Assembly (NCBI GenBank): GCA_050011255.1
Contig: JBEKJK010000012.1
Location: 4,007-68,006 of the forward strand
Source of the DNA: Acidimicrobiales bacterium
GTDB lineage: Bacteria > Actinomycetota > Acidimicrobiia > Acidimicrobiales > UBA8190
Length of the DNA stretch: 64,000 nt
Direction of reading: 5' to 3'
The notes under the pieces were generated by a model. It searched no databases and was not told the origin of the DNA. It saw only the letters and a program-made list of their open reading frames with translations. The first letter of the stretch is position 1, and each line of letters starts with the position of its first letter. The translations under genes and the position numbers were made by a program. Positions 30,212-52,090 of the stretch are shown here, in pieces.

Positions 30212-31592
30212 CTACGAACCGCCCACATAGACGTGGATCACACTTCCTGTCACGACTGAGCTCGGAGTCCCTTGGACCCCCGGACCACCTGAGTCGGTCG
30301 TCAGGTCGTACGCGTTCCACTGCCGTCCGCCGGCTCGGTCGTTCACCCACTCGAGGAGATGGTTCTGCGGCCCGCGCGCGAAGACGTGGATGAAGCCCTC
30401 GCCGGCGTTCACCACCGCGCCCGGGGACCGGGAGATCCCCGAACCACCGGCAACGGCGCTCGGGTCATAGGCGTTCCAGAGGCGTCCTTGGGCAGCGTCG
30501 GAGACGAACTCGGAGAGGTCGCCGGGCTGGTAGGCACGAGAGGGGACGGTCGCGCAAGCGACAGAAGGGCTACGCAGGTCCGGCACGAGAGCACTGAAGA
30601 CGGGAGTGCCCAGACTCGAGGCCAGGTCGTAACGGGCTGTTGCCGGGTAGTAAGGACCCCCGGTGAACGGAGCCCCGTTGGAGTCGGTAGGCAGATACGG
30701 CGAAGGGGGCTGGTTGTCTCCGCAGACGACGTCGTTGAAGGGCTGGCTGTCGAGACACCCTGCCTGGTAGAGGGCAGGGTCCATGAGACCCACCGTCTCT
30801 TCGCCCGACCCTCGTAGGCCAGCGTGGCCAGCGCGGCCCACAGGGACACGCCCATGCTGGTACCACCCACCCCCTTCCAGCCGCCGTCGACGTACTCGCC
30901 GAACGGAGAGCTGACGGGATCGGAGTCCGCCGACACGTCGGGTACCTCGCGGCACGACCTCGTGGCGGGGGCTGAGCTCAACGGACACGCAGACGAGCTC
31001 GTGAACGCGCTCTGCACTCCAGGACCCGCTTGCCAGGCGGGCATCGTCCACTCGTCTGACACACCCCCTCCCCCGGCACCCTCGACGTTGTTCCATACCT
31101 GCTCGGTAGGTCGCGGCCCGAGAGAGCTGAGTGTCGTGCCTCCGACACCTGTGACCCACGGCTGACTCGCGGGGTCCTGCACTTCGAGCATCCGGGGAGC
31201 ATCGGTGCCGTCCCCGAAGCAGCCTTCGGAGCCCACGTCACCGGCGGCGGCGGCGACAGTCTGACCCTGGGAGGCGGCATGAGCGAAGAGCAACGCCTCC
31301 GCGTGGACCTGAGCCGCCCCGAGGTCCCGCTCCCACTCGCCCCAACTGATGGAGATCACCTTGACGGCGTCCTGATCGACCATCGCGGTGTACGTGCTGA
31401 GTACGACGGCATTCGAGGCATTCGATCCCACGTCGGAGCCCACGTACACCTTCACGCCCACCTGAGGCGCCATGCCCACCGCCCCGAGTTGCGCACCAGC
31501 GGGATCGGGGACGCCCCGGCCACAGCCGGGAGCTTGAGAGCCGTCACGAGCAGTCCCGCTGTTGCGACGAGAGAGGCAATCAGCCGTTTCAT
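30212..31592 (-). pseudogene. Sedolisin (S53)-like peptidase fused to a 2-blade WNxYDL repeat module; disrupted by two -1 frame changes and missing the N-terminal half of the catalytic domain
   Basis: Frame A: MKRLIASLVATAGLLVTALKLPAVAGA signal peptide (ATG at 31592, AAGGGGGAC upstream) hits a stop after about 46 codons. Frame B (track ORF 30409-31755): VKVISISWGEWE...AAAGDVGSEGC...WVTGVGGTTL...VPDVSADSDP...GGTSMGVSLWAALATLAYEG. Frame C (track ORF 30212-31159): SGEETVGLMDPALYQAG...LSEFVSDAAQGRLWNAYDP...QWNAYDL...VIHVYVGGS. Confidence 0.6.
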
Positions 31593-31851
31593 GTCCCCCT
31601 TTGCGAATTTCCGACGCTGACGAGAACCAAAGCGGCCGAGGAGCCTCGGAGGCTACGGTCCGACAGACCCGGGACGGCTCTCGCAGTACGTGCCACGGTG
31701 CGCTTGCGCACCATAGTGCGTCACCACTGCGCCTTCTGTAGTGTTCACAATCCAAATGGTGATGTCACGCGTCGAGTGTGGTGTCTGATACGCGACCTCG
31801 TGGAGAACAGACGTCCCCGACAACACTGACCCCGAATCATCGTTCTCGCCG

Positions 31852-33624
31852 GTGCCCGAAGTGAAACGTGGCGCCCACACCTCGTCTCACCCCTCGACGT
31901 GGCGGAGTGTCGCGCCCACGGTCCTCGCAATCGGGATCTACGCGGCCATCGCGGTCGTGGCGTTCTGGCATGCGTGGGCCGCAGACCCGAACTCGTTCGC
32001 CCTCTCCGGAGGTGGAGACCAGGCGGCATCCATGTGGTTCCTCACCTGGGCTCCCTACGCCGTCTTGCACGGGCACAACCCGCTCTTCTCGAACTACGGG
32101 AATTACCCCTTCGGCGTCAACTTGGTGGCGAACACCAGCACGCTGCCACTGGGTCTTCTCGCCGCCCCGGTCACGTTGCTCTTCGGGCAGGTCGTCAGCT
32201 TCAACCTGCTCGGGACCCTGGCTCTGGTCGCTTCGGCGGCGGCCGCGTACGCGCTCGTGCGACGCTTCACCAGCTGGCGACCAGCCGCATTCGCCGGCGG
32301 GCTCCTCTACGGATTCTCGCCCTACATGGTGGCCCAGGGGATCGGGCACCTGAACCTCGTGTTCGTCCCACTGCCACCTCTGATCCTCCTCGTCGTCCAC
32401 GACTTGGTCGTCCGTCAGCGCGGGCGGCCGGTCTGGCAGGGAGCGGTGCTCGGTCTTCTCGTCGTCGTGCAATTCTTCATCTCGAGCGAAGTGCTACTGG
32501 GAACGATCGTGATCGGGGCCGCCGGCGTGCTCGTGGCCGCGTTGTTCGCGAGAAGGGAGATTCGCGACCGTTTCCGCTACACCGTCACCGCCTTGGCGAG
32601 TGCCGCCTTCGTATCCCTGGTGCTCCTCTCCTACCCCGTATGGTTCCTGGTCGCGGGTCCCGCGCACGTGGTCGGGCCCATTCAGGCCCATCCCCAGATC
32701 TACCGCGCGGACCTTCTGGGCCCGATCCTTCCCGACAGCCTCCAACGCTTCGCCCCCGCGACGTTCACCCGAATCGCCGATCGGTTCGCGGGCAACGGGA
32801 GCGAGAACGGCTCTTACCTCGGGCTCCCGTTGGTGGTGGTGATCGCGGCAAGTACCATCGCCCTCCGGCGCGTGGCGGTCGTGCGGGTGGCGGCAATCCT
32901 GTGCGCCGTCGCGTTCGTGCTCTCACTCGGCTCGCGGCTGATGGTGGACAACCGCACGACCGGGGTCCCCATGCCAGAAGGGGTCTTCGACAAGCTTCCT
33001 CTCTTCAACAACGCCCTCCCGGTCCGCTTCTCTTTGTACGTCTCCCTTTGCGGCGCAGTCATCCTCGGAGTCGTCCTGGAGCGGATCCGACGTGCTCGGC
33101 TCGGGCGGAACAGGGCGGCGTCATTGGCAGCCCCTGCGCTGGTGGCGGTCGCCGTCTTTCTGCCGCTGGTCCCCGCCTGGCCGTACGTGATGCAGCCGAC
33201 GGGCGTGCCCAGCTACTTCACCTCGAGGGCCGCAGAAGCGATTCCGCCGGACACGGTCACTCTCGTCTACCCGTTCCCCGACGCGAGCTTCGCCAACCCG
33301 GAGAACTGGCAGGCAACCACGTTCCTCAGATTCAAGCTGCCCGGAGGGCGCTTCATCGTTCCTCAGCCGCGCGGTGCGGCGTCTTCGAGCCGCCCGTCGT
33401 TGACCGACACCACGCTCAGCGCTCTTTCCACGGGAACGCCTCCGCGGCGGACCACCTCGCTGCGCGTCCGGATCCAGGCGCAATTGCGCTCTTGGCACGT
33501 TCGCAACGTCGTGGCCATACCCACAGGAGCCAACTTCGCCCAGGCCGAGACGTATCTCACATGGTTGCTCGGGCGCCCCCCGACCCACTCCGCCGGAGCC
33601 GACACCTGGTACGGCTGGCGCTGA
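31852..33624 (+). CDS. Polytopic membrane protein, GT-C-like candidate
   Basis: About 12 or more hydrophobic segments. First-loop SGGGDQAASMWFLTWAPYAVLHGHNPLFSNYGNYPFGVN. The alternative overlapping 595-aa ORF (31899-33686) is Arg-rich and non-protein-like. Confidence 0.65.
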   Translation: MPEVKRGAHTSSHPSTWRSVAPTVLAIGIYAAIAVVAFWHAWAADPNSFALSGGGDQAASMWFLTWAPYAVLHGHNPLFSNYGNYPFGVNLVANTSTLPLGLLAAPVTLLFGQVVSFNLLGTLALVASAAAAYALVRRFTSWRPAAFAGGLLYGFSPYMVAQGIGHLNLVFVPLPPLILLVVHDLVVRQRGRPVWQGAVLGLLVVVQFFISSEVLLGTIVIGAAGVLVAALFARREIRDRFRYTVTALASAAFVSLVLLSYPVWFLVAGPAHVVGPIQAHPQIYRADLLGPILPDSLQRFAPATFTRIADRFAGNGSENGSYLGLPLVVVIAASTIALRRVAVVRVAAILCAVAFVLSLGSRLMVDNRTTGVPMPEGVFDKLPLFNNALPVRFSLYVSLCGAVILGVVLERIRRARLGRNRAASLAAPALVAVAVFLPLVPAWPYVMQPTGVPSYFTSRAAEAIPPDTVTLVYPFPDASFANPENWQATTFLRFKLPGGRFIVPQPRGAASSSRPSLTDTTLSALSTGTPPRRTTSLRVRIQAQLRSWHVRNVVAIPTGANFAQAETYLTWLLGRPPTHSAGADTWYGWR

Positions 33625-33733
33625 CCCGGTCGACCGACGAGGGAACGTGCCGCCAGGGCCGTCGGTCACGAGTTGGCAGCGTGTGAGATCCTCGCGATCT
33701 CGGCGATCGACCAGAGACGATCGACCGGATCGG

Positions 33734-35692
33734 TCACGGGCCGCAGTCCACGCCGCTGTCGGAGAACTGGATCGTGTTGTACGGGGCCCCCCACCCTCGC
33801 ACAGTGTTCTCGTCGGCCAACGACGGACAGGACCCGAAGTAGCCGATGTACCCGGTGACGTTGGAACCTGGTCTGCCGAAGCTGCCTCCCGGGATGAACG
33901 GCTCGTTTCCCTGAATCGGGCTCACGGCGATGAAAGCGGGTAGGCCGATCGCCGACAGATCGTTGGTGTAGTACTGCGACTGGTTCGCGTAGAAAGCAGG
34001 ATGAAGTGCCGAGTCCACCGACGTGATCCCCGCCGACCAGCCGTACAGCCACGCCCCCCAGTCCCAGAGCGTCCCCGGCGTGCCGTTGTACCCCTCGGGG
34101 TCGAGGATCACCCAGTCCGGCCTCGTGGCGTCGGTCTCGTAGTCCCGATCGATCGCCTGAGCGGCGGTCTGCCCGGCCTGGTACCCGTCGCTGTTCCACG
34201 AGTCGCCACCGGCCGGGCCGCTCACCGTCCAGAACGAGAGCCACGTGACCCGTACCCGCAAGGCCACGATCGCCTCGCCCACATTGAGGTCCGGGGTGCT
34301 AGGGAGCTGGGCGGTGTAGGGGGCGCCCGTCGTCCCGAGCCCGCCCGTGTCCCCCAGGACGGGCCACTCGTCGCCTATGGCTTGGCCTGCCGCGGTCCAG
34401 GATGCGAATCCGTAGACCCCCACCCCCGTCTTCGGTGGTCCGCCGGGCGCCAGTGGCCCTCCCGCGTAGACGTGTACCACGGAGTTCCAGACGACCGCGC
34501 TCGGATCGCTTCCGATTGTAGGTCCCGCCGACGTGGTGGTCAGGTCGTACGCGTTCCAGAGGTGGCCTCCGGCTCCATTTGGTAGGTACTCGACCAGGTC
34601 GTCGCTCGACGGGCGTACGAAGAGCTCGATCAACCCCGTAGACGGATCGACGACGGCACTCGGGGTGCCCGACACCGGACCCCCGTTGAACGCCAACGCA
34701 CTCAAGTCGTACGCGTTCCACAGACGTCCCCAGGCCCCGTCGTTCACGTACTCCACGATGTCGCCGGCCCAGCTCCGGACGAACACGTGGACCAACCCCT
34801 GAGCGCCCGAGTAAAGAGCATCGGGGGTGCCGCCTATCGCGCTCCCCGCGCCCGCCAGACCGGTCAAGTCGTACGCGTTCCACACACGCCCCCAAGCATG
34901 GTCGGAGACGTACTCCATCATGTGCCCGTCGGAGCCTTCGGCGTAGACGTGGATGAAATCCTGAGCCGGCTGGTAGAGGGCACCGGGCGGGCTTGCGATG
35001 GTTCCTCCACCGCCCGCGAACACGCTGAGGTCGTAGGCGTTCCAGACGTGCCCGGCCGCGTGATCCGAGAGGTACTCGACCAGGTTGCCGTTCGCGCTCT
35101 GGGCGTAGACGTGAACGAGATCCTGTCCCGCGTCGTACACCGCGCTCGGCGCCCCGGCTATCGGTCCCCCACCGCCCGCGAACACGCTCAGGTCGTAGAC
35201 GTTCCAAGGGTGTCCGCCCAGGCCATCGTTCACGTACTCGAGCAGGTCGCCATTGGTGCCCTGGGCATAGACGTGGAGCAGCCCTTGCGCGGTGTCGTAG
35301 ACCGCGTCCGGCGCCCCGCCCAGCCCCGTGGTGGACGCGGCTTGGGACGTGAGGTCGTAGGTGCTCCAGGCCTGGCCGGACGATCTTCCGTCGTTCACGT
35401 ACTGAACCAGCTCCGTGTCCGCGGCGCGACCGAAGACGTGCACGAGCCCGTCGCGAGCATCGGAGATCGCGTTGGGGTCGCCGATGAAGGTGGGACCGTT
35501 CAGGTTCGCAGTCTGGTCATAGGCGTTCCAGGCACGCCCGCTCGCGTTATCGGCGACGAATTCCTGAAGCGGCAATGCAGCACCGGGCACCTCGGCCGCC
35601 CTTGCCGACGGAGGGGGCGCAGTGAACACGACCACACCTACCAGCACCACCGGTGCGAGCACCAGCACTACGGCAAGAAGGCGTCTGGACAT
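33734..35692 (-). CDS. Secreted 7-blade WNxYDL/IHVY beta-propeller-repeat protein with a C-terminal glycoside-hydrolase-like domain
   Basis: N-terminal hydrophobic signal/anchor MSRRLLAVVLVLAPVVLVGVVVF. Seven repeats marked by AWNAYDQ, AWSTYDL, PWNVYDL, VWNAYDL, VWNAYDL, LWNAYDL, LWNAYDL, each followed by (L/V/I)(V/I)HV(Y/F). About 230-aa C-domain (YGFASWTAAGQ...DWVILDPEGYNGTPG...PAFYANQSQYY), tentatively DUF1906/GH25-like. Confidence 0.8.
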   Translation of the reverse strand: MSRRLLAVVLVLAPVVLVGVVVFTAPPPSARAAEVPGAALPLQEFVADNASGRAWNAYDQTANLNGPTFIGDPNAISDARDGLVHVFGRAADTELVQYVNDGRSSGQAWSTYDLTSQAASTTGLGGAPDAVYDTAQGLLHVYAQGTNGDLLEYVNDGLGGHPWNVYDLSVFAGGGGPIAGAPSAVYDAGQDLVHVYAQSANGNLVEYLSDHAAGHVWNAYDLSVFAGGGGTIASPPGALYQPAQDFIHVYAEGSDGHMMEYVSDHAWGRVWNAYDLTGLAGAGSAIGGTPDALYSGAQGLVHVFVRSWAGDIVEYVNDGAWGRLWNAYDLSALAFNGGPVSGTPSAVVDPSTGLIELFVRPSSDDLVEYLPNGAGGHLWNAYDLTTTSAGPTIGSDPSAVVWNSVVHVYAGGPLAPGGPPKTGVGVYGFASWTAAGQAIGDEWPVLGDTGGLGTTGAPYTAQLPSTPDLNVGEAIVALRVRVTWLSFWTVSGPAGGDSWNSDGYQAGQTAAQAIDRDYETDATRPDWVILDPEGYNGTPGTLWDWGAWLYGWSAGITSVDSALHPAFYANQSQYYTNDLSAIGLPAFIAVSPIQGNEPFIPGGSFGRPGSNVTGYIGYFGSCPSLADENTVRGWGAPYNTIQFSDSGVDCGP

Positions 35693-35933
35693 GGGCTATT
35701 CACCACCTCGCTTGCCGGAGAGCGAGCGACATCAGCCGCGGGAGCAGGTTACGCCGACCGGGACGAACACTAGCAGCGGCTCACGGCGGTCGAGGTAACC
35801 ACGGCCGCTTGCGCGAAAGTCCAGTAGATTGGGAGTTTGTCGTGATTCACCGACTGCACCTGCTGACGTCGCAGGTCGGGAGAGATTGCCCACCTGCAGC
35901 CACTTGGAAGAGGAGGCGCGAGGACTTCGTGCG

Positions 35934-36311
35934 ATGAGCGCTGAACCGTGGTTGAAACGCGTCCTGCGGAGCTTCTTGAAGCGCCTCTTCCAACCTATCT
36001 TGACGCGCGCGTATGCGCGGATCGATCTACGTATCGAAGCTTTGACGCGGGAACTGAACGAGACGGTGGGCGAGCTGAGTGCCCTCCGCCGGGACATAGA
36101 CCGAACGGTGACCACCGTTCTCAACGCGCTTTCGAACCAGAACGCGAGCGCGCGACTACAGGCCAGAGCACTCGAGATGGAGCACGCCCGCTTGGCAGAG
36201 GAGATCTCGAGACAGATCGAGCTCGTGCGCAAAGAGATCACGCTGGAAGCCGGCTACGGACCACCTGTCGATGCGCGAGAAGACGTCGAGACGAACGTGC
36301 TCGACAGCTAG
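35934..36311 (+). CDS. Coiled-coil protein (125 aa)
   Basis: RIDLRIEALTRELNETVGELSALRRDIDRTV...LEMEHARLAEEISRQIELVRKEI. Immediately upstream of the GT genes. Confidence 0.55.
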   Translation: MSAEPWLKRVLRSFLKRLFQPILTRAYARIDLRIEALTRELNETVGELSALRRDIDRTVTTVLNALSNQNASARLQARALEMEHARLAEEISRQIELVRKEITLEAGYGPPVDAREDVETNVLDS

Positions 36312-36342
36312 ACGTCCTGCTACCTCCGAAAGCGCCGAGCCG

Positions 36343-37593
36343 ATGACCGATCCCGGACCGGATCTGCGGATCGCTCTGTACTCGGGCATCTTCGTGCACC
36401 ACGACGCAGTGTCCAACAGCCTTCAAAGCAAGTTGGACATCCTCGAGTCACTCGACGCACGCGGCGCGCGTATCGACCTGAACGTGTTCACGCAGGCCAG
36501 CGATTACCGCGCACCGTACATCCGAGGTGTTCCAACCGTCGCCGAGCTCTTGCGCCAAGAGGCATTTTGGTCCACGGACGTGCATATCTTCGAGTTCGGC
36601 ATGTCCTACGAGCTGTTCGACTCGGTCTTCGTAATTCCGCCCGATCGGCCGATCATGGTGGTGGAGCACAATACGACGCCGCCCGAGCTCGTCGACGACC
36701 CCGCCGTGAAGCTCGGTTGTGAGGCCGCTCTCCTACAACGGCACAACATCTCCAAGGCGTATCGGGTGGCCTGTGTGAGCGAGTTCAATCTCGACTTGGA
36801 CCGGTCCATCGGTGTCGCGGAGGATCGCCTACGTGTCCTGCACCTACCGCCCGCTCACCGGCTCAGCCCGGCTGATCGCAAGGGCTTTGGCGACACCCAA
36901 GGCCCTGTTCGCCTCCTGTACCTGGGCCGTCTCGTACGTGCCAAAGGCGTCGGTGACCTCCTCAAGGCCGTATCGTCGCTGTGGGGTCACGGCGACGACC
37001 GCTTCGTGTTGACTCTGGCCGGGAACCCGCGCTTCTCCGACGAGGCGGTCGTGCGCCAGCTCGAGCGCTGTACGAGGCGCTTCGCGGGACTCGGGAAGCT
37101 GCAAGTCGTCTCCAGCCCGAGCGACGAAGACATCGTCGAGCTGTTTCACAGCGCCGACGTCCTCGTGATCCCTTCGTACCACGAGGGTTACTGCGTCCCG
37201 GTCATAGAGGCGATGTCGGCAGGGTGCTACGTGATCGGCTCCGACGCAGGCAACCTCCCGAACATCATGGGTGGACTCGGAAGGGTCGTCCCCGCCGGGG
37301 ACGTCTTCGCGCTCACAACGGCGATCGCCGAATTGGTCTCGCGCATGCGACCTGCCTCCGACGCTACACCTGACACCATGAGCGCCGTACGGGTCCCGAC
37401 CGACTATGGAGAGCTCGAATTTGCGGAGTGGTCGGCGCTGGTGGCCGAGCATCTGGAGGACTACTCCGATACCGCCTACGAGCGTGGCTTCATCCGTCTG
37501 CTCGCAGAGCTGGCGGATGCTTCACTCGCGGGATTGTCACCAAGACTCGGGGGGCTCATCTCCGAGCGAACGCGCGAGCTGATGCGCGCATGA
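36343..37593 (+). CDS. Glycosyltransferase family 4 (GT-B)
   Basis: LLYLGRLVRAKGVGDLLKAV...ADVLVIPSYHEGYCVPVIEAMSAGCYVIGSDAGNLPNIMG (E-x7-E region). Confidence 0.85.
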   Translation: MTDPGPDLRIALYSGIFVHHDAVSNSLQSKLDILESLDARGARIDLNVFTQASDYRAPYIRGVPTVAELLRQEAFWSTDVHIFEFGMSYELFDSVFVIPPDRPIMVVEHNTTPPELVDDPAVKLGCEAALLQRHNISKAYRVACVSEFNLDLDRSIGVAEDRLRVLHLPPAHRLSPADRKGFGDTQGPVRLLYLGRLVRAKGVGDLLKAVSSLWGHGDDRFVLTLAGNPRFSDEAVVRQLERCTRRFAGLGKLQVVSSPSDEDIVELFHSADVLVIPSYHEGYCVPVIEAMSAGCYVIGSDAGNLPNIMGGLGRVVPAGDVFALTTAIAELVSRMRPASDATPDTMSAVRVPTDYGELEFAEWSALVAEHLEDYSDTAYERGFIRLLAELADASLAGLSPRLGGLISERTRELMRA

Positions 37594-41687: not shown

Positions 41688-42799
41688 CGCGCATCTGCTT
41701 CACGCACCCCGATGACGAGGTACTCGTCGGGCCCCGCCAGCAAGGCACCCAGTACTCCCAGGAGATTTTCGTCGGCCGTCGGCGCCCCTCCGGAACTCTC
41801 TTGCAGTCGTGTTCGCAGATCGGTCCCGCCACGGTGCACCTCGATCCGCCCGAACCCGTTTCTCGTCAGGAGGTACGACCACGTCTCGGCATGAAGGGGA
41901 TGGCCCGGTGCCAGGTCCGCCACGAGTGGGTCGGCGACGCGCCCCCAGGCCTCCGGTGTGAGAGAGACGACGAGAAGCACTCCCGTGTCAGCAATTCGCG
42001 CGGACAGCAGCGACATGAGCTGCGTGCATCCTCGCGCGCCGAGCACCTGCACCGAACCCTCGAGCACCGCTCCGCCCAGTGCACCGGTTGGCAACGATCG
42101 CAGATGGTCGGTCAGCTCCTCGCACCGAATGTGTGGCCCCGAGCTCGCCGCCAACCCTGACGAGGTCCCGTACGGGTCCAAGCCGTAGGCGTCGACACCA
42201 GCGGCGCGAAGAGCTCGAATCAACATGCCCTCTCCGCACTCCGAGTGCAGGACCGGAGCTGAAACACCCGACAGCGCCGAGAGTGCCAGCGACGACCACC
42301 ACCGCTCGCCGGGTGCCTGGTGCGCGACGATATCGCTAGGCATGGACGGTCGGAGAGCCGACACCTCCTCGTGCAGTCGGTCCAAGTCCTCTGCGACGAG
42401 ATTGAAGGCTCGCGCCACGGCCAGTGCGAACCGCGAGAACTGCGAGACGAAGAACCGCACGTACCATCCGACGGCTGCTCGGACCACGCGCTTTACGACC
42501 GAGCCTCCCGCTCGGCGCGACGCCACGGGCACTTGGAGGTCGATCGCCGCGCTGCGCTCGACGAATGACACGCCCCGTCTCAACGCGTGATCCCTGATTC
42601 CTTCGCGCGGGGCGAGCTCGCCGAACATCCGGTCGAGCTCGCTCTCGAAGTCGCCCGGCACAGCGCCAGAAGCACGCTGGCGTGCCACCTCCTCGTCGAT
42701 CTCGACTATGGCCCTGCGAAGCGCCCGTCGTCCTTCTTCGATGTTCACCCCCGAACGCTCATCGCCGACTGGGGCCGACGGTGGATCGTCGAAGCGCAC
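41684..42799 (-). CDS. SAM-dependent methyltransferase domain protein with N-terminal helical/coiled-coil extension
   Basis: N-terminal RRALRRAIVEIDEEVARQRASGAVPGDFESELDRMF. Methyltransferase-like VLHSECGEGMLIRALRAAGVDAYGLDP. 4-nt overlap with the downstream GT4 gene. Confidence 0.65.
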   Translation of the reverse strand: MRFDDPPSAPVGDERSGVNIEEGRRALRRAIVEIDEEVARQRASGAVPGDFESELDRMFGELAPREGIRDHALRRGVSFVERSAAIDLQVPVASRRAGGSVVKRVVRAAVGWYVRFFVSQFSRFALAVARAFNLVAEDLDRLHEEVSALRPSMPSDIVAHQAPGERWWSSLALSALSGVSAPVLHSECGEGMLIRALRAAGVDAYGLDPYGTSSGLAASSGPHIRCEELTDHLRSLPTGALGGAVLEGSVQVLGARGCTQLMSLLSARIADTGVLLVVSLTPEAWGRVADPLVADLAPGHPLHAETWSYLLTRNGFGRIEVHRGGTDLRTRLQESSGGAPTADENLLGVLGALLAGPDEYLVIGVREADAR

Positions 42800-43105: not shown

Positions 43106-45139
43106 GTGAACCTCTTCAATTCCCCGACTTCGCCACCCGAACCACGACGACCAGCGGCCCTGCGAAGAGGCGCCGCCGGCTCTCGCCGGCTCGCCTCGGT
43201 GGTCGCGGGACTCGCCGGCACCCTGCTGCTGTCGTCACCGGTTGGTGCCCTGGCGACGTCCGGAGTCCGCACGGCGCCGGCGCTGACCCAAAACGCTCCG
43301 GCGTCCCCGATCAGGCCTGTGTTGGCCGCGTCGGTGACCGCACCACACGGGATCGTCCCGCCGGCCAATCCTGCGCAGACCATCGCGCCCTCACCGAACT
43401 TCCTAGCGAATTGCTCGGCAAGCTACTACGACGACTCTCAAGGGTGCCTGGACGCGACGCTTCAGGCGATAACAAACGCCCGGGCACAGGAGGGGGTGGC
43501 GGATATGGCGCTTCCCACCGACTGGGCGTCTCTAAGCCCCCAAGAACAGCTCTTCGTCGCTACGAACCTCGAGCGCACCGCGCGCGGTCTGACGCCGCTG
43601 TCGGCGATGGCGACGACGCTCGACCAGGCAGCACAACAGGGCGCCGGCGCTGACCAGGACCCCTCCCCTCCGGGCGGTTTCCCGTGGTCGTCTTGGGGCA
43701 GCAATTGGACCGCAGCCGTGGGCAACCCGCTCGAGGCGATCTACTACTGGATGTACGACGACGGTGAGGGCTCGTCGAACGCCGACTGCACCCCGGCGAA
43801 CACGAGCGGTTGCTGGCAGCATCGCGACAACATCCTCATGGCGCTTCGCTGCCAGCCGTGCGAGATAGGGACCGGCTACGCATCCGGGGCATGGCAAGGC
43901 CAGCCGAGCTGGACCGCGCTGCTCGTGGACACATCCGGAGCCACGTCACTCGACTACACCTGGACCCAGGTCCTTCCCTACCTGTCGAACAGCAACGGAA
44001 CGGGATCGTCGAACTCGGACCTCTTCGAGTTCGTCTCTGACCACGCCTTCGGGTGTGTGTGGAACTCCTACGACCAAACGGCCGCCACCGGTGGCCCTGA
44101 CATCGCCGCGACGCCGAGCGCGCTGGTCGATCCCCACGACGGCTTTCTCCACGTCTTCGTCAGCGCGGGTGACTCCCATCTCTTCGAGTACGTGAACGAC
44201 GACACCGGGGGGCGTGTCTGGAACTACTACGACCTCACGGCTGCGTTCGGCGTCTTGGACATCTCTGGAAGTCCGAGCGCGCTGGTCGATCCCCACGACG
44301 GCTTTCTCCATGTCTTCGAACGTGCCTCTGACGGACATCTCCTCGAGTACGTGAACGACGGAGTCGGGGGGCGTGCATGGAACCCCTACGACCTCACAGC
44401 CACATACGCCCCCTCGACGCCTCTCGGTGCCGCCCCTGACGCTATCTACGACTCCGCGCAGGGACTCATCCACGTCTATGCACAGTCCGCCGCCACCGGC
44501 CACCTGGTGGAGTACACGAACGACGGCGCGAACGGCCAGCCGTGGAACGCCTACGACCTGACCGTGAACGCGGGTTCAGGCAGTCCCGTCTCCGGCATCC
44601 CGAGCGCCGTCTACGACACGGGCCAGGACTTGATCCACACCTACGTCGAGGGCGCGAACGGCCATCTGGTCGAGTACCTCTCGGACCACGCCGACGGGCA
44701 TGTCTGGAACGCGTACGACCTGAGCGCGAACGCCGGAAGCGGTACGCCGATCGGCGGCTCACCCGGCTCGGTGTACGACGCAGGCCAGGATCTCATCCAC
44801 ACCTACGTCGAGGGCGCGAACGGAGAGCTCTTCGAATACGTCTCGGACCACGCCGACGGGCACGTCTGGAACTCGTACGACCTGAGCGCGAACGCAGGAG
44901 GCGGAGCCGGTGTCTCTGGCATCCCTGACCCGGTATACGACTCTGCCAGCGATCTCATCCACACCTACGTCGAGGGCGCGAACAGCCATCTGGTCGAGTA
45001 CCTCTCGGATCACGTCGACGGGCACGTCTGGAACTCGTACGACCTGAGCGAGAACGCCGGAGGCGGGGTCGACGTCGACGACGGGACCAGCGCGATCGTC
45101 ATCGGTGACGTGATCCACGTGTACGTGGGCGGCGGATAG
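43106..45139 (+). CDS. Secreted CAP/SCP (PR-1-like) domain protein fused to a 7-blade WNxYDL/IHVY propeller
   Basis: N-terminal RRGAAGSRRLASVVAGLAGTLLLSSPVGALA (possibly Tat-type). CAP-like NLERTARGLTPL...AIYYWMYDD...CWQHRDNIL. Seven repeats: WNSYDQ, WNYYDL, WNPYDL, WNAYDL, WNAYDL, WNSYDL, WNSYDL. Ends VIHVYVGGG. Confidence 0.8.
   Translation: MNLFNSPTSPPEPRRPAALRRGAAGSRRLASVVAGLAGTLLLSSPVGALATSGVRTAPALTQNAPASPIRPVLAASVTAPHGIVPPANPAQTIAPSPNFLANCSASYYDDSQGCLDATLQAITNARAQEGVADMALPTDWASLSPQEQLFVATNLERTARGLTPLSAMATTLDQAAQQGAGADQDPSPPGGFPWSSWGSNWTAAVGNPLEAIYYWMYDDGEGSSNADCTPANTSGCWQHRDNILMALRCQPCEIGTGYASGAWQGQPSWTALLVDTSGATSLDYTWTQVLPYLSNSNGTGSSNSDLFEFVSDHAFGCVWNSYDQTAATGGPDIAATPSALVDPHDGFLHVFVSAGDSHLFEYVNDDTGGRVWNYYDLTAAFGVLDISGSPSALVDPHDGFLHVFERASDGHLLEYVNDGVGGRAWNPYDLTATYAPSTPLGAAPDAIYDSAQGLIHVYAQSAATGHLVEYTNDGANGQPWNAYDLTVNAGSGSPVSGIPSAVYDTGQDLIHTYVEGANGHLVEYLSDHADGHVWNAYDLSANAGSGTPIGGSPGSVYDAGQDLIHTYVEGANGELFEYVSDHADGHVWNSYDLSANAGGGAGVSGIPDPVYDSASDLIHTYVEGANSHLVEYLSDHVDGHVWNSYDLSENAGGGVDVDDGTSAIVIGDVIHVYVGGG
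44627..45112 (+). repeat. Three tandem 162-bp coding repeats (propeller blades 5-7), near-identical over their first ~100 bp
   Basis: Units start at 44627, 44789 and 44951 with ga(c/t)(t/c)t(g/c)atccacacctacgtcgagggcgcgaac. They encode DLIHTYVEGAN(G/S)(H/E)L(V/F)EY(L/V)SDH(A/V)DGHVWN(A/S)YDLS. Confidence 0.85.
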
Positions 45140-45155: not shown

Positions 45156-45914
45156 CTAGCGGGAGTCACCTCGTGCACGTCGCTCCACTCTCGTGCGAAG
45201 TGGGCTGAGGATCCACCGCAAGGGACGACCCAGCGCTGGAGCGTGGTCACCCAGCACGAGGCGCGCAGCTCGAGCGGCACCGTGCTCTGCGCGGTTCGCA
45301 ACCCGTACTACTAACGTGGCGACGTTGCGTGTGCGTTCACCGCGAACCCACTCCTTCGGACCGGCGACGGTGACCGAGGACGCGCCACGCGATTCGTCGC
45401 CGCTCGCGGGTGAGACGAATATCTCACCCCTGTCGCGCGCACTCACCGGCTTCACGACGACCAGGCTCGACGGGACCCCGAGCACCCGGATCACGACATC
45501 TCGCTCCTCCTCGTCGCTCACGACCACCTCTTGCGCGAGCGTCCACAGACCTCGCAACGCGGTCGCGTCGACACCGAGCTCGCCACAGATCAGAAAGGTG
45601 ACACTTCCGAAACGACGCAGAGCCGCCGCCAGCGACGTCACCTCGAGCCGCGCCCGTAGGCGGCTCGCACCGGGCCGGAAGGGAACTCCCGGCTCGAGGC
45701 AGAGCACCAGCGCATCGGCTCGCACAGACCTGCCGAGTCGATGAAGTGTCCACGCGCCACGAGCTCCTGTCATCGGGGCATGGAGGTGGGCAGCGCTCGG
45801 ACGCGGCGACACCACCACGACCTCGGCGGCGGCTGAAAGTGCCCGCCGGACTGCCGCGATCGTGAGAGACGCCGCCTGTCCGGGAACGGGCGGATAGCTG
45901 CCCGCCACGAGCAC
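45156..45914 (-). CDS. Hypothetical protein resembling only the N-terminal Rossmann half of a GT-B glycosyltransferase
   Basis: MLVAGSYPPVPGQAASLTIAAVRRAL...EVVVVSP resembles GT4 N-termini. There is no E-x7-E region. Starts 5 nt after the upstream GT4 stop. Confidence 0.55.
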   Translation of the reverse strand: MLVAGSYPPVPGQAASLTIAAVRRALSAAAEVVVVSPRPSAAHLHAPMTGARGAWTLHRLGRSVRADALVLCLEPGVPFRPGASRLRARLEVTSLAAALRRFGSVTFLICGELGVDATALRGLWTLAQEVVVSDEEERDVVIRVLGVPSSLVVVKPVSARDRGEIFVSPASGDESRGASSVTVAGPKEWVRGERTRNVATLVVRVANRAEHGAARAARLVLGDHAPALGRPLRWILSPLRTRVERRARGDSR

Positions 45915-45919
45915 GCGCT

Positions 45920-47119
45920 TCAGCGCACGCTCCGCACGCTCGCCTCCATGCGGTCGAGGACCGTCTCCCAGGAGTACTCGCTCATCACGTAGTCTCGCCC
46001 GCGTTCGGCCATGGCCCGGACCTCCGTCGAAGACCTAGAGACCTTACGCAGGAGGCCCACCAGCTCGTCGCGGTCGGAGAACAGCAGACCGCCACCCGAG
46101 CGCCGGCAGTGCCATGCGACGACGTCCCCGGCTGCCGTGGCCAGCACGGGCGTGCCCGCCAGCCATGCTTCCATCATGGTCCGCGAAAAGCTCTCCATGC
46201 GACTGGGCTGGACGTATGCGACGGCGGCCGCAAAGGCGTCATCGCGTTCGTCCGCGCCGACGAAGCCAAGGTCGATGACACGACCATCGAGCTCCTCGGG
46301 GACTTCCACCCGGCCCACTCCGATCGTCACCAGGTCCAGTTCGGTCCCGAGCTCCACAGCACGGGCGAAAGCCTCGACCAGCCAATCCCATCCTTTGCCC
46401 TTCTCGCGCCGCCCCGCGTAGAGGACGAAGGGCCGGGTGATCCCGTGACGTCTCCGAAAGCCCTCAGGGTCGTAAGAGCCGGGCACCCGCACCCCTGCTC
46501 CGGTCACCGTGTGACACGAGGCAACCGGACCCAGGCGGTGCGCGAGGGCGTGCTCCGGCTCGGACAGGAACCACACCGCCGCCGGGTCTGCGAGCACGTG
46601 CCGGAACACCTCCAGGTGGGCGTAGAGCTCGTCGTGGAGGCACGGCATCACCACTGCCCGCTCAGCTACGGCTCGTAGTCCCACCGCGGTCGTCCAGAAC
46701 AGGTAAGGGGAGAACACCACGGCGTCGAATTCCTCTCCGTGGCTCATCAGGTAGTGGAAAAGGTCCGGGGACCGGAACCAGAAACCGAGCCAGCTGATCT
46801 GCTCGTCGAGAGTGGGCACCACACCTCTGTCGATGAGGACGTGGGCTCGCCGAGCGACGCGCGAAGGTTCGCGCACCGTCGCGAAGCGCCGCACTACAAG
46901 GCCCTCTTCCTCGCTCGTCCCTTCGACCAGTTCGTTCTCCCATGTGAAGTGGTCGACGGCACAGGTCGTGAGCACTTCGACCTCCCACCCCCTCGAAGCC
47001 AGTCCTACCGCCGCCTCAGCCGAGACCGCCTCAGAGCCTCCAACCACACCAGGCCCGAAACGTGGGGGTACGAACGCGATCCGCCGGCCTGCGCCCGGGC
47101 GGCTCCCTGTCCGGCTCAC
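45920..47119 (-). CDS. Glycosyltransferase family 4 (GT-B)
   Basis: RIAFVPPRFGPGVVGGSEAVSAEAAVGLASRGWEVEVLT...FVLYAGRREKGKGWDWL...VQPSRMESFSRTMMEAWLAGTPVLATAAGDVV. The GTG at 47119 sits 3 nt after the wzt stop. The track start at 47221 would overlap wzt by 100 nt. Confidence 0.85.
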   Translation of the reverse strand: MSRTGSRPGAGRRIAFVPPRFGPGVVGGSEAVSAEAAVGLASRGWEVEVLTTCAVDHFTWENELVEGTSEEEGLVVRRFATVREPSRVARRAHVLIDRGVVPTLDEQISWLGFWFRSPDLFHYLMSHGEEFDAVVFSPYLFWTTAVGLRAVAERAVVMPCLHDELYAHLEVFRHVLADPAAVWFLSEPEHALAHRLGPVASCHTVTGAGVRVPGSYDPEGFRRRHGITRPFVLYAGRREKGKGWDWLVEAFARAVELGTELDLVTIGVGRVEVPEELDGRVIDLGFVGADERDDAFAAAVAYVQPSRMESFSRTMMEAWLAGTPVLATAAGDVVAWHCRRSGGGLLFSDRDELVGLLRKVSRSSTEVRAMAERGRDYVMSEYSWETVLDRMEASVRSVR

Positions 47120-47121
47120 GC

Positions 47122-48402
47122 TCAGCTGAGGCTGACGGTCCGGAAGTCGGCGTGCAGGTCGAGAGCCACGGTCCCGCGTGAGCGGCCGGGGTTCATCACG
47201 TCGAACGATGCCTGCTCCCATCGGTCGTAGACGATCCCCCGATCACTGCTTATTCCGACACTGACTGTGTAGGACCCCTCGAGCAGGGGAACGCTGTCGA
47301 ACGAGAAGTCCACGCGCCCACTTCCAACCGGAGCGTCGAAGGGCTTGCCGAGCATTGCGGTGTCCGACGCGAACACGAGCGCGCCGGCGCGGTCGAAGAC
47401 CTCGATGTTGAACACGACGCCTTTGGTGGGCTCGGTGGCCTCGTAGCTCATGTGGACCGAGAGGGGCTCGCCCGGCAGCAGGTGGGTGCGGCTCCCGGTA
47501 CCGGGGTGCTCGAGGTCGACCGAAGTGATCATGACCGGCCGCCGACCCTGTTGGTCCACGTCCATCTCGGCTTCCGACGGCACTGCCTCGGTCGCAGCAC
47601 CCACCTTGTCCAGGTAGTCGTGGTAGAGGTGGATCGCCTCAGCAGCCGTTCCCTCCCCGAGCACCTTGCCCTCGTTCAGGACCATTCCGCGATCGCAGAC
47701 CTGGCGCACGAGATCGGCCGAATGCGTGACGAACACGATCGTTCGACCGTCGTCCTGGAATTCCTTGATACGGGCAAGGCACTTTCGCGAGAAGTCCTCG
47801 TCGCCGACTGCAAGCACCTCGTCGATCACGAGGACGTCCGGATCGACGTTCACTGCCACTGCAAACCCGAGACGCACGTACATGCCGGACGAGTAGTACT
47901 TCACCTGGTTGTCGATGAACTGCTCCAACTCGGCAAAGGCCACGATCTCGTCGAAACGCCGGTCCACCTCTCGAGTGGAAAGCCCGAGCAACGAGGCGTT
48001 CAGGTAGATGTTCTCTCTGCCCGAGAGCTCTGGCTGGAACCCGGCTCCTAGCTCCAGGACAGCGGCGACCTGTCCTCGTACCACGACCTTGCCGTCGGTC
48101 GGCTGCAGGATCCCCGAGATGCACTTGAGCAACGTCGACTTGCCCGAGCCGTTGCGGCCGACGATACCCACGGTGTACCCCTCGTTGACCTCGAGATTGA
48201 CGTCGCGAAGCGCCCAGAAGTCCTCGTACGGATTTCGTCCGGCGTGCAACACGCGTTCTTTGAGCGAGTAGTACTTCTGGTGGTACAGCCTGAAGCGCTT
48301 CGAGACGTCTACCACGTCCACAGCGGTGTTCGCACCCAAACGTGTCTCAGAGCTCCTCGGCGAAATTGCCGGCGAGCCGGCCGAACACGACCATGGCTCC
48401 AA
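47122..48402 (-). CDS. wzt: Polysaccharide ABC exporter ATP-binding protein with C-terminal glycan-binding (Wzt_C-like) beta-sandwich
   Basis: GIVGRNGSGKSTLLK, YSSGMYVRLGFAVA, LVIDEVLAVGD, then a ~150-aa extra C-domain (ITSVDLEHPGTGSRTHLLPGEPLSVHMSYEA...FNIEVFD...GSYTVSVGISS). An alternative TTG start at 48339 lies just after the wzm stop. Confidence 0.88.
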   Translation of the reverse strand: MEPWSCSAGSPAISPRSSETRLGANTAVDVVDVSKRFRLYHQKYYSLKERVLHAGRNPYEDFWALRDVNLEVNEGYTVGIVGRNGSGKSTLLKCISGILQPTDGKVVVRGQVAAVLELGAGFQPELSGRENIYLNASLLGLSTREVDRRFDEIVAFAELEQFIDNQVKYYSSGMYVRLGFAVAVNVDPDVLVIDEVLAVGDEDFSRKCLARIKEFQDDGRTIVFVTHSADLVRQVCDRGMVLNEGKVLGEGTAAEAIHLYHDYLDKVGAATEAVPSEAEMDVDQQGRRPVMITSVDLEHPGTGSRTHLLPGEPLSVHMSYEATEPTKGVVFNIEVFDRAGALVFASDTAMLGKPFDAPVGSGRVDFSFDSVPLLEGSYTVSVGISSDRGIVYDRWEQASFDVMNPGRSRGTVALDLHADFRTVSLS

Positions 48403-49453
48403 GCAGCATCAGGAGCGAAACGCCCAAAACGATCAAGTCCGACGAGAGATACCACCCGGTCCCATATTGCGCCATCACGCCTTGTGGGAACGGCTGGTGA
48501 CTGATCGTGGAGATGGGGTGGACGATGTTGTAGAAGATCCGTTGAAAGGTCATCACGACGGGAGTGACCGGATTGGCAAAGTAGAGCCATAACACGTGCG
48601 TCCCTGGAATTCCGAAGAGCGAGTGCCTGGCGAGCTTGTCGTGGACGGTACCGGAGAAAGGGTAAATCCCGGGGACGGCCCAGAACCAAGCCATGAGAAC
48701 CACCTCGACCAGGTGCTGGGTGTCACGCAAGTAGACGTTCACCGCAGAAAGAAGCACCGACAAGGCGGCTGCAAAAGCAATCACGGCAGCCAGAGCAGGT
48801 ACCAGAAGCCACAGCGCGCCCCAGTCCGGCTGATGGCGGAACGCGACCATGAAGATCAGAAGGACGATGGACTGGAACAAGAAGAACATGAAGGCCGAAC
48901 CGACCGAGGCGAGCGGGAGGATCTCGCGAGGAAATGCAACCTTCTTCACGATGCCTGCATTGTTCACGATCGTCGACGTTGCAGCGAGCACCGAGGTCTG
49001 GAACAAGTTCCAGACCAGCATCGCCGCGAACATGTAAATGACGAATTTCGGGATGCCGTTCGGCAGGAAGAACGTGAACAAGACGTAGAAGACGGCGAGG
49101 GTCAAGGCCGGGTTCAGCATGGACCACAGGAACCCGAGAAACGAGTTCATGTACTTGACCTTTATCTCCTTGCGCACGAGGAAGATGAAGAGCTCGCGCG
49201 ATCGCCACAGGTCGACGATGCGTTGCTTCAAGCTCACCTTGGCGGCGACAACACGCGTCGGCTTGTGACCTCGCGCCGCGGCTTTCGCCGTGCGCCGCTT
49301 GAGGTCGCTCTCCGCGGCTGCTATGACCGTGGCCCCGGGCTGCTCGGGAACCTCGGGCGCCCCGCCGATGGCACTGTCGGGCCCGCGATCGGCCCGCACT
49401 TCGGTCACGATGGCGACCCGTTCATCCGACCCCTCACGCTTCTTACTGGGCAA
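48347..49453 (-). CDS. wzm: ABC-2 type polysaccharide exporter permease
   Basis: [45 protein letters not shown] plus six hydrophobic segments. The ~85-aa charged N-terminal extension may not be translated (start uncertain). Confidence 0.85.
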
Positions 49454-50078
49454 CCTCGGCGACAGAGTGCTCGATTACACGGTCGATGAAGCCGTACTCT
49501 TTGCCCTCTTGTGCGGTGAACCAACGGTCACGGTCGAAGTCCGCCTCGATACGCTCGACCGTCTGCCCGGTGTGCAGGGCGATGCGCTCTGCCATCATCC
49601 TCTTCAGGTAGACGATCTGCTCGGCCTGGATGGCGATGTCGGCGGCCTGACCCTGCATCTGCCCCGAGGGCTGGTGCATCAGGATTCGGCTGTGCGGGAG
49701 GGCGAAACGCTTGCCTGGAGTCCCGGCGCATAGCAGGAACTGGCCCATCGAGGCCGCCAGGCCGACACAGATCGTGCTCACGTCGCAACTCACGTACTGC
49801 ATCGTGTCGTAGATGGCGAGACCGTCGGTCACAGAACCACCCGGTGAGTTGATGTAGAGCGCTATGTCGCGCTCGCCATCCTCGGCAGCGAGCAACAGCA
49901 ACTGCGAGCAGACCAGGTTGGCGAGGGTCTCTTCGACGGCACTACCGAGGAAGATGATCCTCTCTTTCAGCAGACGCTGGAAAACGTCCGCCGCAGCCAG
50001 GTCAGACGTCATGGGAGCCCGCAGCGTGGCAGGGCTGGGCGTACGAGCAGGTGAATCGGGCGGGAAACGCTCGGGCAT
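49443..50078 (-). CDS. clpP: ATP-dependent Clp protease proteolytic subunit
   Basis: [25 protein letters not shown]...[18 protein letters not shown]...[14 protein letters not shown]...ILMHQPSG...[18 protein letters not shown] (Ser/His/Asp all present). Confidence 0.9.
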
Positions 50079-50275
50079 GACGCGAGGCTACTCGGGATGC
50101 GGCTGTGGCATCGTCAGGGTCGACCGACTCGACCGTTCACAACTCGATCTTTCAATCCCGTGGCGTTCCATGTCCCTGGCCCGTCGCGCAACTAGGCTGG
50201 CCCTCTCGGGAGCAGTCGGCACCCACCGGACAGGGAGCGGGCCTAGAAGACAGGGGGCAAGCGGGCGTGGGGCAA

Positions 50276-50357
50276 GCGGGCGTGGCGGAACTGGCAGACG
50301 CGCGGGGTTTAGGTCCCCGTCCCTTCGGGGGTGGAGGTTCGAGTCCTCTCGCCCGCA
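50276..50357 (+). tRNA. tRNA-Leu (anticodon TAG), class II with long variable arm; CCA not encoded
   Basis: GCGGGCG TG GCG GAACTGGCAGA CGC G CGGGG TTTAGGT CCCCG TCCCTTCGGGGGT GGAGG TTCGAGT CCTCT CGCCCGC A, 82 nt. Confidence 0.88.
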
Positions 50358-50404
50358 CGAGACCAGCCCGCAAGACCACCACCTGTGTCACGGCGACGTC
50401 GCTG

Positions 50405-52090
50405 ATGGCCGGAATGGTCCTGTGGATGGCCACGGTCGGCGCTGGACCCGCGTCCGCCGCGGTGACCCCCACCGGCACCCAGGTCCCGTTCGAGGAATTC
50501 GTGAACGACGGAGCGGGTGGCCGTCTTTGGAACGAGTACGACCAGACCCAATACGCGAGCGGTCCTCAGATCGAAGGCCGTGCGTCACCGGTCAACTTCG
50601 GCCCGAACGAGCTCCAGGTGTTCACGCTCGGCTCCGACGACCATCTGATCGACTGGGTGAACGACGGGTTGTGGGGCCGAACCTGGAACGCCTACGACCT
50701 GTCGACCTCGGCCGGCGGGGGAGGCAGCGTCGTGGGCAGCCCGGCGGCAATCGTCGTCGGCAACGTCATCCACGTGTACGTCGAGGCCACCGGTGGCGAT
50801 CTGGTCGAGTACGCGAGCGACGGCCAGGGCGGGCGCCTTTGGAACGTCCATGATCTGAGCACCTCGGCCAACGGCGGCCCGATCGACGGGGATCCGGCCG
50901 TGCTGAACCAAGCAGGTGTCCTGCGAGTGCTGGTTCGCTCAAGCAACGGGGATCTCGTCGAGTACGCGAGCAGTGGCCAATCGGGCGATCCGTGGAACCT
51001 CTACGACCTGTCGACCACCTCGAATGGCGGGCCGATCACCGGCGACCCCGCCGCCTTCGTCTATCAGGGCGGGATCGTCCACGCGTACGTGCGCTCCAGC
51101 GGCGGGGAGCTCGTGGAGTACGTGGACGACAACGCCGGCGGCAGATCGTGGAACGCCTACGACCTCACCGGTAACGCAGGCGGTGGCGTACAGATGACCG
51201 GCGATCCCGCGAGCGCGCTTCTCGGGACGGCAGTCAGCATCTACGTTCGCTCCTCGTCGGGAGACCTCGTGGAGTTCGTGAACAACGGCCAGGACGGACA
51301 CCTGTGGAACACCTACGACCTCACCGGTGAAGCTGGAGGCGGCATACAGATGATCGGTTTGCCCGCGGCCGTGTTGTACGGCGCCGTGGCTCACGTCTAC
51401 GTCAGATCTCTGGCCGACCACCTGGTCGAATACGTGAACGACAATCAGCGGGGCAACCCGTGGAACGCTTATAACCTGAGCCAGTACTCGGGTGGCGGGA
51501 CCACGATCGGCTCTGATCCTTCCGCAATCGTCTACCAAGGCTCCGTGGTGCACGTGTACGTCGGTGGGCCTTCACCCGGGCTCCCGGACGCCATCGTCCA
51601 GCTGGCCGAGAGCCAGGACCAGTTCAACGGCGCGGTAGTGGAGGACCCTCCTGACACGAACTGCAACGGGTACACCGCGTTCTTCGGCCGGGGAACGACC
51701 ACGGGATGTGCTCCCGGCACCGCTTCGGAGGAGTGGTGCTCGGACTTCGCCCAATGGGTCTGGACCCTGAACGGCGTGAACACGACCGGGATAAACGGCT
51801 ACGCGTTCACCTGGGTGGGGTGGGGCCAGTCACACGGGACCTTCCTGCCCGGAGCCACCAACGATCCACGTCCCGGCGATGCGGTCGTCTGGGGCTCGAT
51901 GGCCGAGGGGTACAGTCCCCACGTAGGGCTGGTGGTCGGCGTGAAAGACGGCAACATCGACATGGTCTCGGGGAATTCGGGGCCCGTCGACGCCCAGGGC
52001 GACAACATCGCGGTCTGGGAGACGGGTTACTTCGACCCCGCCACGTCCGACAACAGCGGCTACCCGATCCTCGGGTACGTGATTCCCTGA
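50405..52090 (+). CDS. Secreted 7-blade WNxYDL/IHVY propeller protein fused to a C-terminal CHAP (Cys/His amidase-peptidase) domain
   Basis: The ATG at 50405 is the first start after the tRNA. The track ORF start at 50105 would overlap the tRNA. Repeats: LWNEYDQ, TWNAYDL, LWNVHDL, PWNLYDL, SWNAYDL, LWNTYDL, PWNAYNL, then VVHVYVGGP. CHAP: EEWCSDFAQWVW (Cys) and PGDAVVWGSMAEGYSPHVGLVVGV (His). Confidence 0.8.
   Translation: MAGMVLWMATVGAGPASAAVTPTGTQVPFEEFVNDGAGGRLWNEYDQTQYASGPQIEGRASPVNFGPNELQVFTLGSDDHLIDWVNDGLWGRTWNAYDLSTSAGGGGSVVGSPAAIVVGNVIHVYVEATGGDLVEYASDGQGGRLWNVHDLSTSANGGPIDGDPAVLNQAGVLRVLVRSSNGDLVEYASSGQSGDPWNLYDLSTTSNGGPITGDPAAFVYQGGIVHAYVRSSGGELVEYVDDNAGGRSWNAYDLTGNAGGGVQMTGDPASALLGTAVSIYVRSSSGDLVEFVNNGQDGHLWNTYDLTGEAGGGIQMIGLPAAVLYGAVAHVYVRSLADHLVEYVNDNQRGNPWNAYNLSQYSGGGTTIGSDPSAIVYQGSVVHVYVGGPSPGLPDAIVQLAESQDQFNGAVVEDPPDTNCNGYTAFFGRGTTTGCAPGTASEEWCSDFAQWVWTLNGVNTTGINGYAFTWVGWGQSHGTFLPGATNDPRPGDAVVWGSMAEGYSPHVGLVVGVKDGNIDMVSGNSGPVDAQGDNIAVWETGYFDPATSDNSGYPILGYVIP

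Follow-up and report, generated by a model that had tools for sequence, protein, structure and literature searches.

What does a repeat module do when it is carried by four different genes that are interleaved with those of a wall-glycan export locus? We addressed this question in 64,000 nucleotides from an uncultured Acidimicrobiales bacterium (assembly GCA_050011255.1, contig JBEKJK010000012.1, positions 4,007 to 68,006), the whole stretch being referred to hereafter as the window. A preliminary description, made from the letters of the DNA, had noticed three genes with seven repeats each (here prop1, prop2 and prop3) and a fourth gene with two, which we show to be a pseudogene. Our results place the repeat module, as a divergent seven-bladed beta-propeller, in the PLL / DUF346 / AAL lectin superfamily: a known fold put to a new use rather than a new fold. 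We infer, with a probability of about 0.6, that it is a multivalent lectin cassette that would bind sugar and would concentrate envelope enzymes on the glycan of the wall.

The repeat module is a PLL-like propeller

All six frames of the window were scanned for a blade motif (regular expression W[NS].[YH][DN]). The motif matched 23 times, always in phase and always within the four open reading frames (ORFs), which hold 7 + 7 + 7 + 2 blades; by chance, 0.37-0.60 matches (maximum 4) were expected, as estimated by shuffling the window and by order-2 Markov simulation. Translation and motif scan thus confirm the three proteins with seven blades each. Alignment of the 23 blades gives a length of 48-55 amino acids and the consensus LvEYVxD..G..WNaYDLt...P......HVYv, and the Trp (W) codons are spaced by exactly 162 nucleotides in prop1 and by 153-165 nucleotides in prop2 and prop3. 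The module borders described earlier could also be read in the translations, the first blade reading EF...WNxYD(Q/P) and the last one ending with V(I/V)HVY(A/V)GG.

At the DNA level, Tandem Repeats Finder (TRF) reported 162-nucleotide arrays in two of the four genes. Blades 4-7 of prop2 form such an array, with 82% matches, and it is recent. Blade similarity between prop1 and prop2 is shifted by one (p1.2 to p2.3, p1.3 to p2.4, p1.4 to p2.5), both proteins still having seven blades; blades come and go, with the total constrained to seven.

The AlphaFold2 model of the prop1 module has seven four-stranded blades (predicted local distance difference test score, pLDDT, 96.7; predicted template modelling score, pTM, 0.93). 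In this model the N-terminus gives strands C and D of the closing blade and the C-terminus would give strands A and B, a strand order that implies a velcro closure, deduced rather than seen because the construct ended 10 residues early and lacks the final strand. When the model was compared with the Protein Data Bank (PDB) using Foldseek, ranks 1-22 were all occupied by PLL, PLL2-5 and PHL of Photorhabdus (E ~2e-18, template modelling score, TM, 0.67-0.79), followed by the six-bladed fucose lectins AFL, AAL and AofleA (E ~1e-11) and then by sialidase-type propellers. A family profile (A1), built from a 60-sequence alignment, gave the same picture, matching PLL2 (E 1.2e-13), PLL (6e-12), PHL (4e-9) and, weakly, AofleA (0.003). 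The propeller and its lectin-like nature, both proposed in the preliminary description, are therefore borne out, and the loose likeness to RSL/AAL lectins noted there was on the right track, AAL-type lectins being the second tier of Foldseek matches. The same description held that the repeat was not a named family, and here it has to be corrected: the repeat belongs to the Beta-prop_PLL (PF26607) / DUF346 / Fungal_lectin superfamily, with solved PLL structures. Indeed, some homologues pass the Pfam cut-offs of Fungal_lectin (31-32 bits versus 25.3) and of DUF346, and PF26607, absent from the Pfam scans made here, is precomputed on 22 of the 120 homologues listed.

The module and the PLL lectins have in common a single closed propeller of seven four-stranded blades of about 50 amino acids (47-55), a strand pattern, one blade Trp and a significant profile similarity. 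They differ in that identity to the window module is 16-21% and that the PLL signature W-x-x-W...W-x-x-W corresponds to LxEYVxD...WNxYDL in the window module. Moreover, the PLL lectins are free soluble oligomers of a Gram-negative insect pathogen, whereas the module studied here is an enzyme-fused cassette in Gram-positive-type Acidimicrobiales. AAL, AFL and RSL (PF07938) are likewise propeller lectins with sites between the blades, but have six blades (or are trimers of two) and a TM of ~0.5, and the seven-bladed window proteins fall below the Fungal_lectin model. DUF346 (PF03984), to which no function is assigned, is matched strongly by distant relatives (best E 1e-31, 9 of 81 representatives) but at E 1.6 by the window module.

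The propeller is fused to envelope enzymes

Each propeller of the window is joined to a different partner. In prop3 this is a CHAP domain (PF05257), which reaches 32 bits (cut-off 26) and has the Cys/His motifs WCSDF and PHVGLV. The start of this gene at 50405 proved right, since the longer ORF, from 50105, contains the tRNA-Leu gene and is hence spurious.

The C-terminal domain of prop1 (a gene with a third-position G+C, GC3, of 0.83 and with orthologues of 65-84% identity in Acidimicrobiales metagenome-assembled genomes, MAGs) has no match in Pfam or among PDB sequences. Its AlphaFold2 model (pLDDT 60) shows alternating beta/alpha elements with marginal Foldseek matches to glycoside hydrolase (GH) family GH18 chitinase-like proteins and to GH25 lysins (E 2e-3, TM 0.37-0.55). 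An invariant PDWVILDPEG motif (D-x4-D-x-E) in this domain family resembles the D-x-E catalytic motifs of the GH18/GH25 families, and the model makes a TIM-barrel glycosidase possible. Homologues of the domain are hypothetical proteins of Alicyclobacillus and others, without Pfam domains. Those of Alicyclobacillus (L021, L022) are proteins of ~400 amino acids encoded beside a GDSL esterase gene, with DPEG invariant; a glycan-locus context was looked for around them and none was found.

For the Cys-rich N-terminal domain of prop2, the CAP/SCP family (PF00188) scored 18.4 bits, below its cut-off of 21.1, in one of nine orthologues; a profile of the domain had no PDB match, and its segments NLERTARGL and GHRDNIL are CAP-like by eye only. 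The protein P0010 (ABSC00_07170, from an Acidimicrobiales MAG at NCBI) is 100% identical to prop2 over this domain (residues 1-271). Four partner domains had been announced at the outset: the CHAP domain and the remnant of an S53 peptidase stand, and the CAP and glycoside-hydrolase-like assignments are weak. The export signals announced for all four proteins, which we judged by eye and by hydropathy, are likewise of unequal quality, being strong in prop1, plausible in prop2, weak in prop3 and out of frame in the pseudogene. Twin arginines recur in the n-regions of these signals, both in the window (N-termini at 35692 and 43106) and in the homologues P0002, P0006, P0054, P0095 and P0100 (for example MSRRLL, GSRRLAS, MRRRVL and TRRGAG), a pattern that hints at twin-arginine (Tat) export of a pre-folded propeller.

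The family is rare: a word-indexed search yielded 171 homologous proteins, and 326 clusters at E<=1e-3 (57 at E<=1e-30) were found among 1.84 billion representatives. The close relatives that are named all come from Acidimicrobiales MAGs, the closest of which is from a bog (84% identity), and in species-representative genomes 15 of 17 loci belong to Acidimicrobiales or Acidimicrobiaceae MAGs, the other two being labelled only Actinomycetota. We counted partner domains by hand over the 120 homologues listed and found CHAP (26), Polysacc_deac_1 (16), YkuD (5) and M23 (2). A Pfam census of 81 representatives added SpoIID, an Rv2525c-like GH domain and Pro-kumamolisin/S53, and, in distant relatives, GH43, matrixin M10, S8, fn3 and Ig-like domains. 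The cassette is found at either the N- or the C-terminal end of the protein, and in most homologues a signal-like N-terminus ends just before the first blade. Across the family, the partner domains are mostly peptidoglycan-acting enzymes.

Two gene types are linked to a glycan export locus

Real frames in the window were chosen by third-position G+C, and Pfam then confirmed both the glycan locus and its interleaving with the propeller genes (Table 1). The locus totals four GT4 glycosyltransferase (GT) genes, one GT2+GT4 gene and one methyltransferase gene. Permease, ATPase with a Wzt_C domain and clustered glycosyltransferases make it an ABC-transporter-dependent (Wzm/Wzt) pathway, and it is syntenic in relatives.

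In relatives, two gene types are genuinely linked to glycan genes and other types are not. Genes of the prop1 type adjoin GT4 / GT2+GT4 (often methyltransferase) genes, a DUF6311 gene or both (L001-L006, L015, L018, L025), a linkage that persists down to 37-39% identity. CHAP-type genes adjoin Wzm/clpP in L008, L010 and L014 and GT2 plus methyltransferase genes in L026 and L027. The CAP-type gene, prop2, was found in the closest MAG only, and the deacetylase and YkuD paralogues lack the linkage, so that the association proposed earlier holds for part of the family.

In L008 and L010 the CHAP gene lies between Wzm and clpP, and in the window the tRNA-Leu gene lies between clpP and the CHAP gene; the differing positions indicate that local gene order was rearranged around tRNA-Leu. 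Methyltransferase genes recur beside propeller genes (L003, L004, L025, L026, L027 and window 39914-40561). An envelope-stress-type module (21718-25005: LuxR-type response regulator, PspC-domain histidine kinase, PspC/LiaF-like protein) shows synteny with this glycan locus in L003.

The propeller could also bind peptidoglycan, that is, strands of N-acetylglucosamine (GlcNAc) and N-acetylmuramic acid (MurNAc), rather than the Wzm/Wzt polymer, its vicinity to the glycan locus being then a matter of general envelope-gene clustering. Such a target would suit the many partners that act on peptidoglycan (CHAP, M23, YkuD, PgdA-type deacetylase), the paralogues lying outside glycan loci, and the presence in the window of a Mur ligase gene together with the PspC/LiaF envelope-stress module. 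It does not account for prop1-type and CHAP-type genes staying beside GT/Wzm genes down to 37-40% identity, and the ligands of the propeller's structural relatives are fucose or O-methylated sugars rather than polymers of GlcNAc (PMC12203525, PMC5584973). We consider peptidoglycan a rather unlikely ligand.

The leading candidate, a possible ligand short of a probable one, is the polymer of the neighbouring locus, and binding of the propeller to it is plausible. In ABC-dependent O-antigen systems a Wzt_C domain and methyltransferases go with capped polymers, and this analogy suggests that the locus polymer may be capped and possibly methylated. To link the preference of PLL for O-methylated sugars with a methyl-capped polymer here would be speculation.

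A homologous peptidase carries CWB2 repeats instead of the propeller

The fourth gene had been described as a protein with two repeats. Both blades are there, and the protein is not intact: the gene is a pseudogene of an S53 (sedolisin)-propeller protein. Its signal peptide, at 31592, meets a stop after 46 codons and is out of frame with the S53 core, which starts in another frame just past the point where intact relatives have their catalytic Glu/Asp segment. The gene has lost by deletion both the S53 pro-domain (Pro-kuma_activ) and the portion of the active site with Glu/Asp, and the window copy has no pro-domain and Ser-Glu-Asp core in one frame. A second frameshift lies near 30800, and an in-frame loss of five blades has left blade 1 running directly into the end of blade 7 (30215-30517). 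Intact S53 relatives are P0121 and the gene of L002. P0121 is a pro-kumamolisin/S53 protein of 1019 amino acids with seven blades, and its junction sequences closely match those of the pseudogene. The S53 neighbour in L002 was ruled out as a propeller carrier, having a different C-terminal region. An assembly artefact was also ruled out as the origin of the two-blade gene, since the closest independent MAG is even more eroded at the same place, which points to decay and not to misassembly. Directly 3′ of the pseudogene, and upstream of an SDR gene, lies a 17-nucleotide tandem repeat (GCTCCTCTTCGGACCTC, 30138-30204, 3.9 copies, 96% matches).

In L025 an S53 peptidase adjoins a prop1-type gene. 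It is homologous to P0121 over ~600 residues (34% identity), and its C-terminus consists of a TIG domain and three CWB2 repeats, where P0121 and the window remnant have the propeller. CWB2 is an established wall-polymer anchor. That it replaces the propeller in an S53 homologue encoded at the same, syntenic genomic position is the best indirect evidence that the propeller serves as a wall anchor. The proposed role, that of a non-catalytic repeat module targeting exported enzymes to a wall polymer, is what the propeller would have in common with CWB2, SLH, LysM, GW and choline-binding repeats; their folds are unrelated, and for the propeller the role is a proposal.

The swap also bears on a second alternative, in which the propeller is the equivalent of a carbohydrate-binding module (CBM) in secreted lytic or scavenging exoenzymes and recognises foreign glycans, whether of competitors, fungi or plant and soil polymers. 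Characterised PLL lectins do bind the glycans of other organisms (PMC12203525). The partners of distant relatives (GH43, matrixin M10, S8, fn3, Ig-like) are of the kind typically found in degradative enzymes that cells secrete, and bacteriolytic enzymes commonly have CHAP and M23 domains. On the other hand, fusions to an L,D-transpeptidase and to a PgdA-type deacetylase make little sense on foreign cells, a wall anchor takes the place of the propeller in the homologous S53 peptidase, and there is conserved synteny with the locus that exports the cell's own glycan. Recognition of foreign glycans is hence improbable.

Possible ligand sites and points against a wall lectin

The fucose / O-methyl pocket of PHL and PLL consists of two Trp 15 residues apart (W199 and W214 in PHL), and the polar site has another Trp on which sugars stack (PMC5584973, PMC12203525). 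In the hidden Markov model (HMM) alignment, PLL L-W-H-x-W-Q...W-S-x-W corresponds to L-v-E-Y-V-x-D...W-N-a-Y of our family. With residue roles taken from the two papers, two pocket Trp per site are not found: Val/Leu and Tyr stand in place of the pair, Val stands where the polar site has its stacking Trp, and of the four PLL blade Trp one (the third) is kept. Sugar binding and ligand are thus not transferable from homology, and this weighs against the lectin cassette that we propose. So do several other results. The repeat region of single window proteins had no match in Pfam, NCBIfam or PDB sequences, the PLL link being revealed only by the family profile and the fold search; the signal peptide of prop3 is weak; prop2 is absent from the otherwise syntenic locus of L003, a 74%-identical relative; the deacetylase paralogue (L023) and the YkuD paralogue (L024) lie outside the glycan locus; and one MAG has five propeller paralogues on five contigs.

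The residues E, D, W, N, Y, D, H and Y are conserved in nearly every blade across the family, and this polar/aromatic set looks like a series of repeated sites with another specificity than that of PLL. S-layer glycan clusters use Wzm/Wzt and a membrane transferase, and they offer a parallel for the second form of a third alternative. That the propeller is no lectin, serving as a protein-protein or oligomerisation scaffold or belonging to proteins of the surface on which the glycan of the locus is placed, would agree with the loss of the PLL sugar-contacting Trp, with the Ser/Thr after every WNxYDL motif and with the two flanking polytopic membrane proteins (31852-33624 and 27190-29301), which could be transferases, but is very improbable given the strong conservation of the eight residues in each blade, as expected of repeated ligand sites, and nearest fold and profile relatives that are all lectins.

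A proposed wall-targeting cassette

These results give good support to a module that targets envelope enzymes to glycan. We propose that the propeller would be a portable cassette placed N- or C-terminally on exported envelope enzymes: here on CHAP, on an uncharacterised domain of predicted alpha/beta-barrel type, on a Cys-rich CAP-like domain and formerly on an S53 peptidase; in relatives on a PgdA-type deacetylase, a YkuD L,D-transpeptidase and an M23 peptidase. Up to seven repeated inter-blade sites would provide multivalent, low-affinity binding to a sugar epitope of the cell's own wall, and this binding would concentrate the enzymes on it. The substrate of YkuD and PgdA is the peptidoglycan of the cell that makes them, so their fusions argue for a target on the self wall. 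The first candidate ligand would be the polysaccharide of the interleaved Wzm/Wzt/glycosyltransferase/methyltransferase locus, the second the glycan strands of peptidoglycan.

In its most specific form the proposal becomes tentative. The propeller might be an unrecognised cell-wall-binding module of Acidimicrobiia, a lectin that reads the product of the interleaved locus, a secondary wall polysaccharide that may be O-methyl-capped. Parallels for such a module are SLH with pyruvylated secondary cell-wall polysaccharide (SCWP) and CWB2 with PSII.

Features of the window

The coordinates of the propeller genes and of their neighbours are collected in Table 1. Elsewhere in the window, G+C, which ranges from 61 to 70%, falls to 0.61-0.63 at ~6-16 kb, and a phage-type integrase gene (17721-18902) abuts a tRNA-Gly gene (18969-19044); the region 6000-19100 may be an integrated mobile element. 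A tmRNA gene (63384-63735) has the tag peptide AEPQLALAA.

Table 1. Propeller genes, glycan locus and neighbouring features, in window coordinates.
Feature	Position	Strand	Content or basis
Polytopic membrane protein	27190-29301		
S53 (sedolisin)-propeller pseudogene	30212..31592	-	Split over three frames
Two-blade ORF	30212-31159	-	2 blades
Polytopic membrane protein, DUF6311 homologue	31852..33624	+	Always beside prop1 in relatives
prop1 gene	33734..35692	-	Signal peptide, seven-blade propeller, 240-amino-acid C-terminal domain
prop1 C-terminal domain	33737..34456	-	Uncharacterised family
prop1 propeller module	34457..35569	-	Residues 42-412, seven blades
GT4	36271-37593	+	Pfam
GT2+GT4	37428-39875	+	Pfam
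Methyltransferase	39914-40561	+	Pfam
GT4	40584-41687	-	Pfam
Gene without assigned function	41684-42799	-	
prop2 gene	43106..45139	+	Cys-rich N-terminal domain, seven-blade propeller; NCBI start equivalent to 43199
prop2 propeller module	44021..45136	+	Motif scan, blade alignment, TRF
Gene without assigned function	45156-45914	-	
GT4	45920-47221	-	Pfam
Wzt ABC ATPase with Wzt_C domain	47122-48402	-	Pfam
Wzm ABC-2 permease	48347-49453	-	Pfam
clpP	49443-50078		
tRNA-Leu(tag)	50276-50358	+	Between clpP and prop3
prop3 gene	50405..52090	+	Seven blades; short weak signal, propeller 50489-51571, CHAP domain ~51731-51976

Implications

To our knowledge, Photorhabdus is the only source of characterised PLL-type propeller lectins; these are free lectins, and their natural role is still under debate. 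In the literature on PF26607, PLL-like domains, DUF346 and propeller wall-binding, within the limited coverage of our search, we found no description of a PLL-like propeller as an appendage of wall enzymes. In uncultured Acidimicrobiales of bog and soil, a distant relative of PLL is a modular appendage on peptidoglycan-remodelling enzymes, kept beside a wall-glycan export locus. No general principle is changed by this finding. If wall binding is true, the propeller would be a new wall-targeting module beside SLH, CWB2, LysM, GW and choline-binding repeats, labelled propellers would be usable as probes of the envelope chemistry of Acidimicrobiia, and the PLL fold would have a wider biological range. 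If the module does read a wall polysaccharide, this would point to a bacterial cell-wall origin of the PLL lectins that Photorhabdus uses against its hosts.

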